DNA of 64,000 nucleotides from a virus (IMGVR_UViG_3300009149_000011:64001-128000); one strand, 5' to 3'; shown: positions 12,928-26,442, counted from the first letter of the stretch. The notes: generated from the sequence alone by a model not told the origin. Made by a program: numbers and translations.

Positions 12928-13185
12928 TTATTTATCTTTTTGGTCTTTCAACCAATATTGTTTCTGCTGACGTACATATTTGTTATCTCCGCTGCACATC
13001 CAGCAATTACACGGATTAAGAGTAGTTCTTAAAAATGTACAATCCTTTCCGCTGTACACATCTTTAATATACTGTTCTTTACTTGTTGAGCTATACACCC
13101 AACTAAATTGAGTCCAAATCCTTACTCTCCTTCTGAATTTAGTCTCCGAGATTTTTCTTCTCTTTGCTTTTTTATAATCTTTCAT
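12928..13185 (-). CDS. small basic protein with PCNCWMC (CxCxxC) motif
   Basis: ORF track; Lys/Arg-rich N-terminus. Confidence 0.65.
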   Translation of the reverse strand: MKDYKKAKRRKISETKFRRRVRIWTQFSWVYSSTSKEQYIKDVYSGKDCTFLRTTLNPCNCWMCSGDNKYVRQQKQYWLKDQKDK

Positions 13186-13265
13186 GACTTATCAGGTTAT
13201 GGCCATTATCCCTAAGCTGGGATAACGACTCGTTACCTGAACAAGTCTTTATCTTTATTCTTCAT
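13186..13265 (-). promoter_or_regulatory. uORF (MKNKDKDLFR*) plus long hairpin abutting next start codon
   Basis: GACTT/AAGTC, TCAGGT/ACCTGA and GTCGTTATCCC/GGGATAATGGC pairings. Confidence 0.55.
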
Positions 13266-13270
13266 AAACA

Positions 13271-13969
13271 CTAATTTATAATTCCATATTTTTTTGCCCA
13301 TTTCCTAACAGCATTATCACTAACTCCATACTTTTTACCAACCGCAACAAAAGACGTTTCACCCAACATCTTTCTCAACTCTTTTTCAGTGGGTCTATTT
13401 TTTACTTTTCTATAAAACACTGTTCTCAATTTCTTTGTTTCATTAGAACAGGTTTTACATTTTTTAGCCTTTTTTGTTTTTATGTTTCCACAATCACAAA
13501 AATACTTAATTTTAGTATTTCCCCCTGCGAAAGTTGTAGTCTGACTATGACAATTCGGACATAAGAGACTTAGATTTCCCAACCTATTATCATTATTAAC
13601 GCCATTTTTATGCTCTAACTGCAAAGATATTGGTTTATTATTCCATTCTTTTATACCGCACTCTTCACATCTATACTTCAAAACTCCTTCGTTTACCAAC
13701 CTCCTCTTAAGACTAGATCTATTTTGATATGTTGAATTCGCTATCAAAATATCTTCTAAAGGCATTTTATCAGAAGTACTAAAAGAAAATCTTCCATTTG
13801 TTTTAAACTTTGGAAGATGTACACCTATTCTATCGCAATGAATCCTAAGAGTTTTATAAGCTCCAGACCCATTAGAGTTTACACCAATACTTTCTAGCAT
13901 TTGCCTTATGGACGAATGCTTGGAGATTAGATCTTCTATCTGATCTTTAGTTAAATCTGCAATTTTCAT
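13271..13969 (-). CDS. HNH homing endonuclease
   Basis: CEECG..WNNKPISLQLEHKNGVNNDNRLGNLSLLCPNCHSQT; C-terminal HTH. Confidence 0.88.
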   Translation of the reverse strand: MKIADLTKDQIEDLISKHSSIRQMLESIGVNSNGSGAYKTLRIHCDRIGVHLPKFKTNGRFSFSTSDKMPLEDILIANSTYQNRSSLKRRLVNEGVLKYRCEECGIKEWNNKPISLQLEHKNGVNNDNRLGNLSLLCPNCHSQTTTFAGGNTKIKYFCDCGNIKTKKAKKCKTCSNETKKLRTVFYRKVKNRPTEKELRKMLGETSFVAVGKKYGVSDNAVRKWAKKYGIIN

Positions 13970-14017
13970 TTTTCTCTATAAATAGTGAGAAAAACTCGAA
14001 CCTTGCAAATGGTTTTG

Positions 14018-14092
14018 CACACCCGATAGGACTCGAACCTATAACCTTCGCTTTTGGAGGGCGCTGCTCTGACGCAATTGAGCTACGGATGC
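14018..14092 (-). tRNA. tRNA-Trp(CCA), weak anticodon stem
   Basis: GCGCC CT CCA AA AGCGA; T-arm ATAGG TTCGAGT CCTAT. Confidence 0.8.
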
Positions 14093-14098
14093 ATATTG

Positions 14099-14185
14099 TA
14101 GAGAGTATGGGATTCGAACCCATGTATCGCTTTCGCGATAACACGCTTTCCAAGCGTGCGCCTTAAACCACTCGGCCAACTCTCT
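14099..14185 (-). tRNA. tRNA-Ser(GGA)
   Basis: CACGC TT GGA AA GCGTG, long variable arm. Confidence 0.92.
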
Positions 14186-14190
14186 AAGTA

Positions 14191-14294
14191 AGAGAAGTAA
14201 GGGTAGCGTGTACTTTGCATCCTTACTTTCGATTTCCTTCCGCATGCCAAACGCCCTTTATCAGGAACGAAGACCTCCAGTCACCTATCTCTCT
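14191..14294 (-). ncRNA. candidate structured RNA inside tRNA array
   Basis: ends pair (AGAGA/TCTCT); internal helices GAC/GTC, TTCG-TTCCT/AGGAA-CGAA, AAGTAAGG/CCTTACTT. Confidence 0.4.
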
Positions 14295-14295
14295 G

Positions 14296-14381
14296 CGGAG
14301 AGGGTGGGGTTCGAACCCACGCAGCTTTTACACCCTAACGATTTAGCAAAATGTCCCCTTTAACCACTTGGGTACCTCTCC
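14296..14381 (-). tRNA. tRNA-Ser(GCT), two anticodon-stem mismatches
   Basis: ACATT TT GCT AA ATCGT, long variable arm. Confidence 0.82.
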
Positions 14382-14409
14382 GTAATAAAGCTTTCGCTTT
14401 AAATATTTG

Positions 14410-14483
14410 TGACCCAGAGAGGATTCGAACCTCTAACGATTCGGGTAGAAGCCGAACATTCTATCCAGTTGAATTACTGGGCC
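14410..14483 (-). tRNA. tRNA-Arg(TCT)
   Basis: TTCGG CT TCT AC CCGAA. Confidence 0.92.
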
Positions 14484-14489
14484 ATTTAG

Positions 14490-14563
14490 TACCGATGGAG
14501 GGACTCGAACCCCCGACACTTCCCTGATGAGGGGAACGCTCTACGCAACTGAGCTACATCGGC
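14490..14563 (-). tRNA. tRNA with CAT anticodon (Met or Ile2), atypical C37
   Basis: TTCCC CT CAT CA GGGAA. Confidence 0.8.
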
Positions 14564-14568
14564 AAATA

Positions 14569-14647
14569 AAGAAAGACTGGGATTCGAACCCAGGGACCTC
14601 AGTCACCGCGTTTCGCGCGGCACAATCAACCACTCTGTCACCTTTCT
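14569..14647 (-). tRNA. Ser-type tRNA-like gene with 5-nt anticodon loop (probable Ser(CGA) derivative)
   Basis: CCGCG CGAAA CGCGG; Ser-like acceptor/D arm, short variable hairpin, intact T arm. Confidence 0.65.
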
Positions 14648-14649
14648 AG

Positions 14650-14737
14650 CAGAGGATTTGGGACTCGAACCCAAACGGCTTTTACACCCAACGGTTTTCA
14701 AGACCGCGACCCGTAGACCAACTTGGTTTAACCCTCT
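14650..14737 (-). tRNA. tRNA-Ser(TGA)
   Basis: GCGGT CT TGA AA ACCGT, long variable arm. Confidence 0.92.
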
Positions 14738-14755
14738 GTATTAATTCTTAAGCAT

Positions 14756-14787
14756 AAAAAAACCCCGACCAATTAAGGCCAGGGTTT
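14756..14787 (-). terminator. attenuator terminator directly upstream of tRNA array
   Basis: AAACCCTGGCC TTAATT GGTCGGGG TTTTTTT. Confidence 0.85.
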
Positions 14788-14813
14788 CTGTAAATGTTTT
14801 ATTTCTTATGCTC

Positions 14814-14915
14814 TTAGAAAATAACACATACCCCAGCCGTTGAACTTGATCTACTAGACCAAGATCTCGATCTTGACGATCTTGACATGTTGTTGTATGT
14901 AATTGTTGTTTTCAT
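14814..14915 (-). CDS. attenuator leader peptide (33 aa, Ser/Arg/Trp/Met block)
   Basis: MKTTITYNNMSRSSRSRSWSSRSSSTAGVCVIF*; codons 10-25 all match the anticodons of the downstream tRNAs. Confidence 0.8.
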   Translation of the reverse strand: MKTTITYNNMSRSSRSRSWSSRSSSTAGVCVIF

Positions 14916-14919
14916 TTCG

Positions 14920-14982
14920 TATAAATAGTTAAACTTTTAACAAACTTAATAACTCTAACGTTAAAACGCAAGAAAATGTTAC
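14920..14982 (-). promoter_or_regulatory. stacked promoter motifs for leader/tRNA operon
   Basis: GTAAC-N17-CGTTAG (14982-14955), TTG-N20-TAAGTTTG Bacteroidota-type (14971-14941), CTATTTATA (14928-14920). Confidence 0.6.
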
Positions 14983-15200
14983 TTTTTTTTATTTTTATCT
15001 TTCTTTTTTTTATCAAAAAAGAATGCTACGTGATAAATAATTGTTAATATAGTGGTTATATATAGCCCTGTAGCGCTTCCACTGTAGTAATAGCTTCTTG
15101 AAGAAATAAAATAAGCTCCCAGCATAACTGCAAGTAAAATTATTGACTTTGGCCCCATTGAAGTATAAATGTGCTTATAAAAATCTGATATCTTTTTCAT
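14979..15200 (-). CDS. small membrane protein
   Basis: two TM segments, basic tail. Confidence 0.55.
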   Translation of the reverse strand: MKKISDFYKHIYTSMGPKSIILLAVMLGAYFISSRSYYYSGSATGLYITTILTIIYHVAFFFDKKKKDKNKKK

Positions 15201-15234
15201 AGTCTTTTTATATAAATAGAAAATAATATCGTTT

Positions 15235-16158
15235 TTATGATCCTATAGATTTGGACGCGCCACCTACATATGTTTGTATTCTTCCATATATTTCTTGAAC
15301 TGACGTATTTCTTATGTTGCTCTGAACTACTGAGAAATGATGGTTTGAATGTGGGTGAAACATTAAGTTTAGATGATTGTCCTCCATGTTGTTATAAACG
15401 TCTTCATCCCAAACCGCTTTATCAACAAGTATAGTATCTCCCTCGTTATAGTAATCGTATAGACCTTTTTCTTTAATTACGAAAAGCCAATATAGACAAT
15501 ACTCAGTCCATCTAATTTTTGAATCACCTGCCGAATTAGGGCATAATTTTGACAATTCTTCTACCCAATTTTTATCTTTAAAAACTTTTACGCATAAATG
15601 CTCCATCAACTCCTTAACTAGAGAGGTGTGGAGTATTTGAGGGGTGCAGCCTGGAACTCTCTCCTTGAGATCATAATCTATTTCATACCCCATGATCTCG
15701 GCAGTATTTTCCCACCAGTCTTGATGTGTATGATATGGTATGGTTCCAATTTTCGCCTTCCCATTAACTATTAAATCGCTAAATGAAGTATGTCTTGTTG
15801 CAAACATATCAGCGTCTAGCAGTATATAATGATCAGTTTCTATATGCTCTGATACTTTTAATTTAAGGATTTGCTGTTTAAACCATCCTGAAGAGAAGTT
15901 GATGCTGTTATCAATTAATTGACTGTCAGGTATCAATCTAATGTTTAAGGGGGAGCTTTTAAGCGATTCCATATGTTCCAAGTCGTTGTCTGGACATATA
16001 TATATCACCTCATGCAGAGAGTCTCTATCCACAAACTTTTCAAGAGAAGGGCTAAGCATCATATGAACTCTTGCCAGGTCATTTATCTTGTGCCCTTCCC
16101 AATCTTCTCTACTAGCCCTACTTACAGCTATTACGAATGTAATTTTATTATTCACCAT
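15235..16158 (-). CDS. putative glycosyltransferase (GT-A fold, DUF6492-like)
   Basis: GWFKQQILKL, YILLDADM (DxD), WTEY. Confidence 0.6.
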   Translation of the reverse strand: MVNNKITFVIAVSRASREDWEGHKINDLARVHMMLSPSLEKFVDRDSLHEVIYICPDNDLEHMESLKSSPLNIRLIPDSQLIDNSINFSSGWFKQQILKLKVSEHIETDHYILLDADMFATRHTSFSDLIVNGKAKIGTIPYHTHQDWWENTAEIMGYEIDYDLKERVPGCTPQILHTSLVKELMEHLCVKVFKDKNWVEELSKLCPNSAGDSKIRWTEYCLYWLFVIKEKGLYDYYNEGDTILVDKAVWDEDVYNNMEDNHLNLMFHPHSNHHFSVVQSNIRNTSVQEIYGRIQTYVGGASKSIGS

Positions 16159-16900
16159 CTAACATCCACTCATATTTAGTTCCAGATATCCCTTCAGCTA
16201 CTTCATCGTAGTTTTCTAAAATTTCTCTCAAAGGAAATGGGTTTGTCTTTTTTAAATAAAAACAAGGCTCCTGTTCAGACTCAAGGTTTACAAACTTCAA
16301 AACCTTATCATAAGCTATTCTAGGATCATCTTTAATATCTTCTTCATAAGATATCTTAAGTAAATCATCATCCTTTAGTATTTCGCTCATTTCTAAATAC
16401 CACTCATCCATAGCTGGGAACAACGTGTTAACTATCCAATTTACATCACCTAGATCAATCTTAGTAATGTTATTCACCTCTGTGTTTGAATGCCAGTATC
16501 CATTTTTCTTAGCAACCATAGCTGAAACATATCTTCTTAGGTAATTTTTTCTATCCATAATAATGAATTTATTAATTCCCGCTTTACCTTTAATAGTATC
16601 AATATACTCTCTAGGAGTCATGTTTCTCACCTCATCACTCATATGCACATTACTGTACTTAAATGGCATTGTTTCAAAAAAATAAGCCTTTTTTTTATAT
16701 GCAGTGGATACCTGAATTCTACTTACCAAGTAAGGGAATATAGGCGTATCCATCGGCTTTGTAAATATATCCAAATCATGTTCGACATTACTTGGGTTGT
16801 ATAACTTTATTGTATTATTAATCAAATGGCTCCCACATCTACCTAGATGTAGAACAGCCACTTTTTCAATATCACCACCGCCTAAGTTAACCGTAACCAT
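16148..16900 (-). CDS. sulfotransferase, Stf0-like
   Basis: GRCGSHL (PSB loop), IMDRKNYLRRYVS..A...GYWH, ISYEEDI. Confidence 0.7.
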   Translation of the reverse strand: MVTVNLGGGDIEKVAVLHLGRCGSHLINNTIKLYNPSNVEHDLDIFTKPMDTPIFPYLVSRIQVSTAYKKKAYFFETMPFKYSNVHMSDEVRNMTPREYIDTIKGKAGINKFIIMDRKNYLRRYVSAMVAKKNGYWHSNTEVNNITKIDLGDVNWIVNTLFPAMDEWYLEMSEILKDDDLLKISYEEDIKDDPRIAYDKVLKFVNLESEQEPCFYLKKTNPFPLREILENYDEVAEGISGTKYEWMLDGE

Positions 16901-16901
16901 A

Positions 16902-17249
16902 TTACGATAATAATTTCTTTAAAGAATCTTTATCATCATTGATTGATGATATCATTGCATCAAATTCAGCTAGTTTTTGTTCCCAGAAACCCTCAGATTG
17001 TTCTTCTCCCATTTTATACCAAGTAGTCTCCTTAAATTCTACCCCGTCCATTTCAGTGAAATAGTCATCAAACATATCCCTTGCTTCAAATTGAGCAATA
17101 GGAAATCCCATTCCACCTGGAGTCTCCATAGATTCTGGATAAAACAACCCAGGCTTATCTCCATATTCTATAAACACTTCATCCTTTACAAATAAAGATC
17201 CGATCGTTACAAGATCTTTTTTTAATTGTACCTTTCTTACTTTTCCCAT
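16902..17249 (-). CDS. hypothetical protein
   Basis: ORF track. Confidence 0.6.
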   Translation of the reverse strand: MGKVRKVQLKKDLVTIGSLFVKDEVFIEYGDKPGLFYPESMETPGGMGFPIAQFEARDMFDDYFTEMDGVEFKETTWYKMGEEQSEGFWEQKLAEFDAMISSINDDKDSLKKLLS

Positions 17250-25977: not shown

Positions 25978-26442
25978 TTAATAATGCAAATAGCATATTG
26001 TAAAATTGAATATGGTGTGCGTTATTGATGTTATTGTCAATGCGAATGGATGGTTTACAGACAAACCTTTTATATACATTAAAGATAACCCTATTCCGCC
26101 AAAACCTTGAATTAATACATGTTCCCACCCACCATGAAGATACCCGAATAAGCATGAGACTATGACCATTACAGGAATAGTGTACTTTTCAAAGTATTTA
26201 ACAAGTATATAGATTGGTATAAATCTAAACGCTACTTCTTCCAAAACAGCCATCAAAGGTATAATTAAAAACAAGAAAACATTAATTCCAACCTTTTCAA
26301 CTAAAGCATCTAAATCGCTACTATCAACACTTTCACTATTAAGCAATATGTATCCTATTGTAATTGACACCGCACATAACGTTACATATATAATAGAGAC
26401 CTTTAAATAAGACCACCCTTTTATCTTCTGTACATTTACCAT
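25978..26442 (-). CDS. CPBP/CAAX (Abi) intramembrane protease
   Basis: LEEVAFR, LFGYLH, H...N. Confidence 0.75.
   Translation of the reverse strand: MVNVQKIKGWSYLKVSIIYVTLCAVSITIGYILLNSESVDSSDLDALVEKVGINVFLFLIIPLMAVLEEVAFRFIPIYILVKYFEKYTIPVMVIVSCLFGYLHGGWEHVLIQGFGGIGLSLMYIKGLSVNHPFALTITSITHTIFNFTICYLHY

Follow-up and report, generated by a model that had tools for sequence, protein, structure and literature searches.

A probable leader-peptide attenuator in front of a phage tRNA array, with a leader that lists the amino acids of the array's own tRNAs

Introduction

Our analysis implies that a block of phage tRNA genes is probably controlled by a ribosome-mediated leader-peptide transcription attenuator, which would decide on read-through into this tRNA sub-operon according to how the codons of a short leader are decoded. 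The element lies in a stretch of 64,000 nucleotides (the window), which corresponds to bases 64001-128000 of a virus record of 149,006 bp with 34.5% G+C. The genes behind it are seven tRNA genes and not the amino-acid biosynthesis or synthetase genes that are typical of all described leader-peptide attenuators. The element is new in having tRNA genes as the regulated genes, and it differs from the known attenuators also in listing the content of a whole array and in a predicted default-on logic. Phage tRNA genes are usually discussed as a fixed cargo set against codon bias or against tRNA-targeting defences, and no description of an attenuator in front of tRNA genes was found in the literature searched.

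Results

Anatomy of the cassette in the window

An earlier note on this DNA had placed a 33-codon open reading frame on the minus strand (14915-14814) just upstream of seven tRNA genes. The frame is present and ARAGORN finds all seven genes. The features are listed from upstream to downstream:

14916..14990, minus strand: promoter-like region before the leader, where three cassettes of the same genome align
about 14927-14920, minus strand: 8-nt box TATTTATA, its last base 4 nt ahead of the leader ATG
14814..14915, minus strand: leader ORF of 33 codons plus TAA, read in the sequence
14841..14888, minus strand: roster (sensor) block, leader codons 10-25 (Met, ten Ser, four Arg, Trp), 16/16 codons decodable by the array
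14816..14838, minus strand: predicted 5' strand of the antiterminator (region 2), leader codons 26-33 into the stop codon, pairing with 14805-14777 in nascent-RNA folds
14777..14805, minus strand: predicted 3' strand of the antiterminator (region 3), its last part being the terminator 5' arm (nascent-RNA folds, shuffles, 6x6 energy matrix)
14756..14789, minus strand: intrinsic terminator, hairpin 14789..14758 with 13 pairs and -17.7 kcal/mol, then seven T at 14762-14756
14649..14737, minus strand: tRNA-Ser (UGA), ARAGORN
14569..14647, minus strand: atypical tRNA-like gene of 79 nt, called Phe-GAA by ARAGORN, with C33 and a 10-nt variable loop
14489..14563, minus strand: tRNA-Met (CAU), ARAGORN and Rfam
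14409..14483, minus strand: tRNA-Arg (UCU), ARAGORN and Rfam
14295..14381, minus strand: tRNA-Ser (GCU), ARAGORN and Rfam
14098..14185, minus strand: tRNA-Ser (GGA), ARAGORN and Rfam
14017..14092, minus strand: tRNA-Trp (CCA), the last gene of the array, ARAGORN and Rfam

Rfam supports five of the seven genes as tRNAs with 48-62 bits, and the Ser-UGA gene is matched only as a tRNA-Sec-like RNA with a long arm (34.9 bits). The stretch 14569-14647 has no Rfam match on the minus (tRNA) strand and only a chance-level match of 20 bits on the opposite strand. The earlier note had assigned the TCG codons to a Ser-CGA-like or UGA tRNA; the anticodon that ARAGORN gives for the atypical gene is GAA, not that of Ser-CGA. 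The terminator that had been proposed between the leader and the first tRNA is there, and the first tRNA gene begins about 18 nt beyond its T tract.

Re-reading of the sequence gave exactly the codons that had been listed for positions 10-25 of the leader, namely ATG, TCA (four times), TCG (twice), TCT (twice), AGT (twice), AGA (four times) and TGG. Each of these 16 codons can be decoded under strict wobble by a tRNA of the array, in agreement with the earlier claim. The reverse claim, that each tRNA has a codon in the block, is true for six of the seven tRNAs but not for the atypical GAA tRNA, the only codon of which is the last codon of the leader, TTC, outside the roster. The roster of the window is also of low complexity, with a repeated 9-mer and AGA/TCT palindromes, and the block folds as an 8-bp hairpin because AGA and TCT are reverse complements.

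The region 14916..14990 presumably acts as a promoter. The upstream regions of three cassettes of this genome align, with a common box 4-12 nt ahead of the ATG. The box TATTTATA has 60 copies in the genome, of which 48% are followed within 40 nt by an ATG ORF of at least 25 codons, compared with 20% for random positions. Since the core 8-mer is thus over-represented directly ahead of the starts of ordinary genes, the leaders are positioned like genes.

Genomic setting

The gene content of the window is that of phage replication and nucleotide metabolism (ribonucleotide reductase, DnaB-like helicase, DNA polymerase, tRNA nucleotidyltransferase), and ARAGORN finds 30 tRNA genes in the 149,006-bp genome, in several clusters on the minus strand. 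A genome-wide recoding of TAG is not supported: TAG ends 22 of 151 long ORFs, and reading it as a sense codon brings no special gain.

The tRNA-Ser(UGA) of the window is about 80% identical to a tRNA-Ser of Cellulophaga phages of the genus Callevirus, and therefore a Bacteroidota host is indicated. No close cultured relative was present in a phage collection of 50,697 records, and no cassette-bearing close relative was found there by blastn, where positions 13000-17000 and the second array matched only tRNA and HNH pieces. Within IMG/VR, the neighbouring 307-aa protein had no relative, a search with the helicase gave two fragments, both without tRNAs, and a pattern scan did not find the exact DNA of the roster. 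The conserved start of the leader, used as a pattern, recovered only the Calleviruses again, and in metagenome contigs it gave 11 chance matches, none with tRNAs.

Recurrence of the cassette

The same order of parts, that is a promoter-like box, a short ORF, a terminator and tRNA genes, was found at five more places. Two of these are in the same genome, where the cassettes were found by reading upstream of every tRNA cluster and by a genome scan for terminators behind short ORFs. Three are in the Cellulophaga phage Calle_1 (MT732432; locus L003), each behind an identical promoter-like repeat that, by our own reading, seems to resemble the Bacteroidota TAnnTTTG element. The five leaders are:

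genome 41209..41096: leader of 37 codons, rich in Ala, Asn, Tyr, Pro and Asp; then a terminator and tRNAs for Pro, Asn, Asp, Ala and Tyr
genome 26412..26323: leader of 29 codons; then a terminator and a cluster of Gly, Ile-GAU, Gln, Ile-UAU, Arg-ACG, Val and Met tRNAs
L003 4469..4392: leader of Calle_1 cassette 1, with a roster of Lys, Thr, Ile, Met, Asp, Arg, Gly and Val and exactly those tRNAs downstream
L003 2889..2800: leader of Calle_1 cassette 2, with 16 consecutive codons for Tyr, Asn, Phe, Ser, Trp and Cys; tRNAs Tyr, Ser, Ser, Asn, Trp, Phe and Cys
L003 1649..1560: leader of Calle_1 cassette 3, with 14 consecutive codons for Arg, Leu, His, Gln, Glu and Pro; tRNAs Pro, Glu, Gln, His, Leu and Arg

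The terminators of the three Calle_1 cassettes lie at about 4340, 2720 and 1510 of L003. The roster of the leader at 26412 names Ile (ATA and ATT), Arg (CGC), Gly, Gln and Val, and CGC makes up 1% of the Arg codons in this genome. Codons 7-20 of this leader include 12 that are decodable under strict wobble and 13 at the level of amino acids, and a 55-codon ORF and about 800 nt lie between its terminator and the first confident tRNA.

The same three cassettes as in Calle_1 are present in its relatives phi38:1 and phi40:1, and the roster of cassette 3 is unchanged between Calle_1 and phi40:1 while the codons on either side of it differ. The first nine residues of the leader of Calle_1 cassette 2 are almost exactly those of the window leader. 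Therefore, these cassettes are related by descent, and the divergence of their rosters has gone along with that of the arrays. All six are probably paralogues or homologues and thus not fully independent of each other.

Uncultured phages of IMG/VR that carry the same tRNA-Ser gene (L025-L032) have leaders of 40-51 codons upstream of arrays of 11-24 tRNAs, with terminators that end 57-104 nt ahead of the arrays; in L030 a leader of 57 codons lies 14 nt ahead of an array of 8 tRNAs. The predicted hand-over of the antiterminator as the ribosome advances is seen in most of these loci, not in all. The matching of rosters is not discriminating here, because the arrays cover nearly all amino acids.

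Each leader matches its own array

The earlier note had suggested that leader codons should co-vary with the anticodons downstream, and such covariation is seen among the six cassettes, which come from two phages of unrelated size. The 16-codon window of the roster that is fully decodable by the array (16/16) is unique among the 118,191 stop-free windows of 16 codons in the six frames of the 149,006-bp genome. Since the roster is of low complexity, this uniqueness alone is insufficient against chance, and it is the recurrence in the other cassettes that settles the question.

When each of the six leaders was scored against each of the six arrays, every row of the matrix had its maximum on the diagonal. 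Among 720 permutations, the true pairing of leaders and arrays was the unique best for the strict-codon count, the amino-acid count and both run lengths (p = 0.0014, the smallest value that a design with 720 permutations permits). Some of the Calle_1 tRNAs appear only under relaxed ARAGORN settings or in Rfam, and for this reason the tests were run with the default calls too: the strict-codon score was 64 compared with a permutation mean of 30 under the default ARAGORN calls, and the leader-array score was 70 compared with a mean of 33 under the relaxed tRNA calls.

The rosters thus demonstrably list amino acids. At the level of synonymous codons, 88 of 103 codons are decodable over the six cassettes, where the codon usage of the respective phages would predict 81.9 (p about 0.03). 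As this test is only marginal, we do not claim codon-exact tuning; tuning to isoacceptors, for example of AGA with Arg-UCU or of CGC or CGA with Arg-ACG, is only suggested. The earlier wording that the leader encodes "exactly the codons" of its tRNAs is right for the cassette in the window, but as a sign of codon choice it says little, with 15 observed and 14.5 expected from amino-acid matching and phage codon preference.

Each leader matches its own terminator

The pairing of 14838-14816 with 14805-14777, the core of which had been proposed in the earlier note as an antiterminator, is exactly the minimum-energy fold of the nascent RNA at the stage when the 3' arm of the terminator is still missing, and it beats 299 of 300 shuffles. 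Over the six cassettes, the energy of pairing with the terminator arm was not better than that of 1, 5, 1, 6, 4 and 0 of 300 shuffles. When the leader segments and terminator arms of the six cassettes were combined in a 6x6 energy matrix, the diagonal was best in every row and the true assignment was the unique best of 720 permutations, with a total of -65.5 kcal/mol for pairing with the own arm and a permutation mean of -35.1 kcal/mol. Six different terminators, each with a predicted decoy copy of its own in its own leader, is whole-helix covariation.

The note had also proposed to fold the RNA for two states. In the model, all RNA as far as 14 nt beyond the A-site codon was treated as blocked by the ribosome, a footprint that is an assumption. 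The outcome was divided: folds of the nascent RNA switch with the position of the ribosome, but with the complete terminator the equilibrium favours termination in most cassettes. Of the five cassettes first tested, four have the terminator in the fold of the whole leader, and in four of the five tested with the complete terminator its probability at equilibrium is at least 0.9 at nearly every ribosome position, the exceptions being in Calle_1 cassette 2 a dip to 0.38 at one codon and 0.70 at two others. In the window cassette the equilibrium fold favours termination wherever the ribosome stands. Only Calle_1 cassette 1 switches at equilibrium, from a terminator probability of 0.00-0.06 to 1.0 at codon 15-16. 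Therefore, the switch must be kinetic. In the trp attenuator of E. coli, likewise, the 3:4 hairpin is more stable than the 2:3 hairpin, and the device works kinetically.

Because thermodynamics alone does not demonstrate a switch, we used folds of the nascent RNA, that is of the RNA before the 3' arm of the terminator is made. While the A site lies within the roster, the 5' arm of the terminator is paired in all six cassettes (probability 0.69-1.0) with the segment directly behind the roster, and it is freed (mostly below 0.1-0.5) as the ribosome nears the stop codon; in each cassette the hand-over precedes the end of the roster by 0-5 codons. In the window the arm is paired with a probability of 0.83 up to A-site codon 21 and of 0.08-0.48 from codon 23 to the stop, so that the hand-over falls at codons 22-24, past which region 2 is masked. 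The untranslated nascent RNA folds as the antiterminator in most cassettes. Thus the default would be on, and only a brisk translation of the leader would turn the array off.

Discussion

A model for the control of the tRNA array

The locus has the architecture of a trp/his-type attenuator, as the earlier note had stated. Behind its recurrent anatomy and its matching of codons to anticodons and of leader to terminator, we infer a translated leader, a kinetic competition ruled by timing, a direction of control and a physiological trigger. Transcription would start somewhere between a few bases and some tens of bases ahead of the leader ATG, and a ribosome would translate the 33-codon leader as the RNA polymerase proceeds. 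Slow decoding of the Met, Ser, Arg and Trp codons 10-25 would make the ribosome lag and leave 14838-14816 free to pair with 14805-14777, including the 5' arm of the terminator, so that the terminator would be blocked and the polymerase would enter the seven tRNA genes. With fast decoding, the ribosome at the stop codon would cover 14838-14816, the terminator would form and transcription would stop. The tRNAs produced would relieve the stall, which would amount to a negative feedback on the supply of tRNAs for exactly these codons; the loop would be self-limiting, since what it yields are the very tRNAs by which the roster is decoded. As phi38:1 is reported to rely on the host RNA polymerase (PMC5335546), an intrinsic terminator of the host type makes sense in that phage.

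As for the trigger, the data say only that the sensed variable would be the speed at which the roster codons are decoded. An ordinary mismatch between the codon demand of the phage and the tRNA pool of the host would suffice. The depletion of tRNAs by an anticodon nuclease, the idea of the earlier note, is compatible with the mechanism but speculative; a device that responds to how fast particular codons are translated would also turn on the replacement tRNAs under attack by a host anticodon nuclease or under starvation.

Alternative explanations

One would argue that the cassette is a real cis element that reads the translation of its roster, but that it acts in another way (RNA stability, tRNA processing, Rho, pausing) or on another signal (amino-acid starvation, synthetase capacity). 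The matching of codons and anticodons shows that decoding matters, not which step of it is limiting; the preference for the terminator at equilibrium in four of five cassettes and the 57-104 nt between terminator and first tRNA in the uncultured relatives speak for such an action as well. However, a segment matched to the own terminator arm stands right behind the roster, where a terminator/antiterminator switch needs it and the alternatives do not, and thus we regard this explanation as unlikely, though it is the most serious of those considered.

It is quite improbable that the short ORFs are small proteins with functions of their own, the terminator being the end of a small gene or of an upstream operon and the tRNAs coming from leaky read-through or from other promoters. 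The leaders do stand behind the same box as many ordinary genes, and the phi40:1 annotation lists two of the Callevirus leaders as hypothetical proteins. Yet the six leader peptides have no common sequence past their first residues, while the composition of each reflects the amino acids served by the array behind it, and the gap of about 18 nt in the window leaves no room for another promoter between the T tract and the first tRNA.

Still less probable is a coincidence, in which a low-complexity Ser/Arg repeat or a palindromic site for a binding protein happens to lie in an open frame near Ser and Arg tRNA genes and an ordinary terminator. The block of the window, with its repeated 9-mer and the hairpin of its AGA and TCT triplets, would suit such a reading, but the genome has no second window like that of the roster, and five other cassettes with different, non-repetitive rosters match their own arrays and terminators. 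Equally slight is the probability of a ribosome-free, T-box-like leader, in which triplets pair directly with tRNA anticodons and the binding of tRNA sets the choice between terminator and antiterminator: this logic and a specificity for tRNAs are both present, but there is no Rfam T-box match and no Stem I-like platform, and the 14-16 contiguous in-frame triplets, the ATG behind a gene-start box and the stop codon inside the antiterminator strand speak against it.

Relation to known systems

The leader-peptide attenuator is the preferred explanation. Several such attenuators of enterobacteria are multivalent, as those of ilvGMEDA (Ile/Leu/Val) and thr (Thr/Ile), and others are trp, his, leu and pheA. 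The present element shares with them a leader ORF with regulatory codons, translated in their case and presumably here, an intrinsic terminator, an antiterminator that uses the 5' arm of the terminator, a stop codon sited so that a ribosome that has finished would mask the antiterminator, and the sensing of several amino acids together. The pheL leader has been reviewed (PMC3082878). Unlike the enterobacterial attenuators, the present element regulates tRNA genes instead of biosynthetic enzymes, and because the roster lists the tRNAs of its own array, the product would feed back directly on the sensor. The untranslated RNA also differs: it adopts a 1:2 plus 3:4 state in the enterobacterial systems, whereas here it is predicted to fold as the antiterminator, so that the default would be on. 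No leader family (Trp, His, Thr, Leu and similar) was matched by Rfam at E of at most 1 in 13500-15500, and the T-box model was not matched there either at this threshold.

The pheST attenuator of E. coli, with its pheM leader, is a further case of leader-peptide attenuation; it regulates a part of the decoding apparatus in response to the supply of charged tRNA for its leader codons. There, however, a host synthetase gene is controlled by one amino acid, while in the present cassettes the tRNAs themselves would be controlled by four to nine amino acids. T-box riboswitches are similar in that a terminator/antiterminator switch reads the status of tRNA and controls translation-related genes, but they bind one uncharged tRNA with no ribosome involved and are marked by conserved Stem I and T-box sequences, whereas the present element has an ORF of many codons. 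The Bacteroid-trp predicted leader, an Rfam motif upstream of trp operons of Bacteroidota, suggests that leader-peptide attenuation exists in the phylum of the probable host; it is, however, a Trp-only leader of a biosynthetic operon and has no match in the window. The tRNA clusters of phages T4 and T5 are likewise arrays interspersed with homing endonucleases and small ORFs, and we are not aware that a codon-matched leader or an attenuator has been reported in these clusters.

Meaning for phage biology

The proposed control is directly testable, because the cassettes occur in the cultured phages phi38:1, phi40:1 and Calle_1, for which hosts and infection transcriptomes exist; the transcriptome paper on phi38:1 makes no mention of the leaders (PMC5335546). 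As a tentative generalization, which we hold as possible rather than probable, the cassettes could represent a widespread and so far undescribed class of multi-codon sensors of decoding speed, by which tRNA sub-operons would be expressed on demand, with rosters evolving together with their arrays, and which would serve as a self-limiting counter-defence. If the attenuator model is right, the supply of tRNAs in such phages would be a closed feedback loop on decoding speed, working block by block, and the splitting of arrays into sub-operons would be explained. The codons that limit the translation of a phage in a given host would become predictable, and nature would have provided a modular sensor for the availability of chosen tRNAs that could be used in engineering.

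Cassettes in the same genome and in related phages

The genome that contains the window holds two further cassettes of the same kind, i.e., a box, a short leader ORF, an intrinsic terminator and tRNA genes, both located outside the window:

L007 (second cassette), 3540-3800, genome 41040-41300
L036 (third cassette), 110-290, genome 26260-26440

In the second cassette the box is followed by a leader of 37 codons, rich in Ala, Asn, Tyr, Pro and Asp, then by the terminator and by Pro, Asn, Asp, Ala and Tyr tRNAs; judging by relaxed ARAGORN calls, one Asp-like gene of this array may carry an insertion of ~94 nt. The third cassette consists of a leader of 29 codons with an Ile/Arg/Gly/Gln/Val roster of codons matching array tRNAs, and a terminator; behind the latter lie a coiled-coil-like ORF of 55 codons and pieces resembling tRNAs, and the cassette's cluster of Gly, Ile, Gln, Arg, Val and Met tRNAs starts ~800 nt downstream.

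Codon-matched leader/terminator cassettes are also present in the cultured Cellulophaga phage Calle_1 (locus L003):

L003, 1560-1649
L003, 2800-2889
L003, 4392-4469

The same three were observed in phages phi40:1 (L004) and phi38:1 (L005), and the phi40:1 annotation lists two of these leaders as the hypothetical proteins gp066 and gp070, with alternative starts upstream. The GenBank annotation lacks several of the tRNAs in these arrays, namely Tyr, Cys, Ile-UAU and a Leu-like one. For L003, the feature-table coordinates exceed by ~53 nt the tRNA positions that ARAGORN and Rfam concordantly give in the locus sequence; the coordinates used here are derived from the sequence and not from the feature table.

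Longer leaders with terminators were found in uncultured IMG/VR phages:

L025, 525-720
L026, 2827-3001
L027, 517-720
L028, 11659-11874
L030, 3643-3872
L031, 4342-4543
L032, 1348-1523

These leaders span 40-57 codons, and the arrays behind the terminators comprise up to 24 tRNAs (only three in L028). The first tRNA is separated from the terminator by 57-104 nt that include promoter-like A/T-rich sequence, or by 14 nt in L030.

Atypical parts of the window array

Two parts of the array deserve a separate description:

14569-14647 (-), atypical tRNA-like gene of 79 nt, ARAGORN cloverleaf
14186-14294 (-), 109-nt spacer

According to ARAGORN, the first has the anticodon GAA, and its position 33 is C rather than U; its variable loop of 10 nt is unpaired, and the Rfam tRNA model does not recognise the gene on the minus strand. 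The spacer gave no tRNA calls even with relaxed settings and no Rfam matches, and together with its flanks it folds moderately (-29 kcal/mol).

Unusual tRNAs and tRNA-associated genes

Several other features were recorded:

genome 62265-62338, second CUA tRNA
genome 63655-63812, two tRNA-like genes immediately ahead of the window
291-364 (-), amber suppressor-type tRNA (anticodon CUA)
832-1227 (-), 131-codon ORF
5425-6720 (-), tRNA nucleotidyltransferase of the CCA-adding enzyme family (PHROG 2244, E 2e-65)
13271-13969 (-), HNH homing-endonuclease gene adjoining the tRNA genes

The CUA tRNA of the window lies near the 131-codon ORF, which is open only with readthrough of an in-frame TAG, its codon 5; there was no sign that TAG is recoded genome-wide. 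The two tRNA-like genes have unusual anticodon loops, since ARAGORN reports a four-base anticodon (cgca).

HNH homing-endonuclease genes occur immediately 3' of tRNA genes or among them, in other arrays as well (L007). The one in the window carries ahead of its ATG the box TATTTATA, the same as that of the main-cassette leader. Finally, a tRNA nucleotidyltransferase encoded by the phage itself is consistent with its large tRNA complement.
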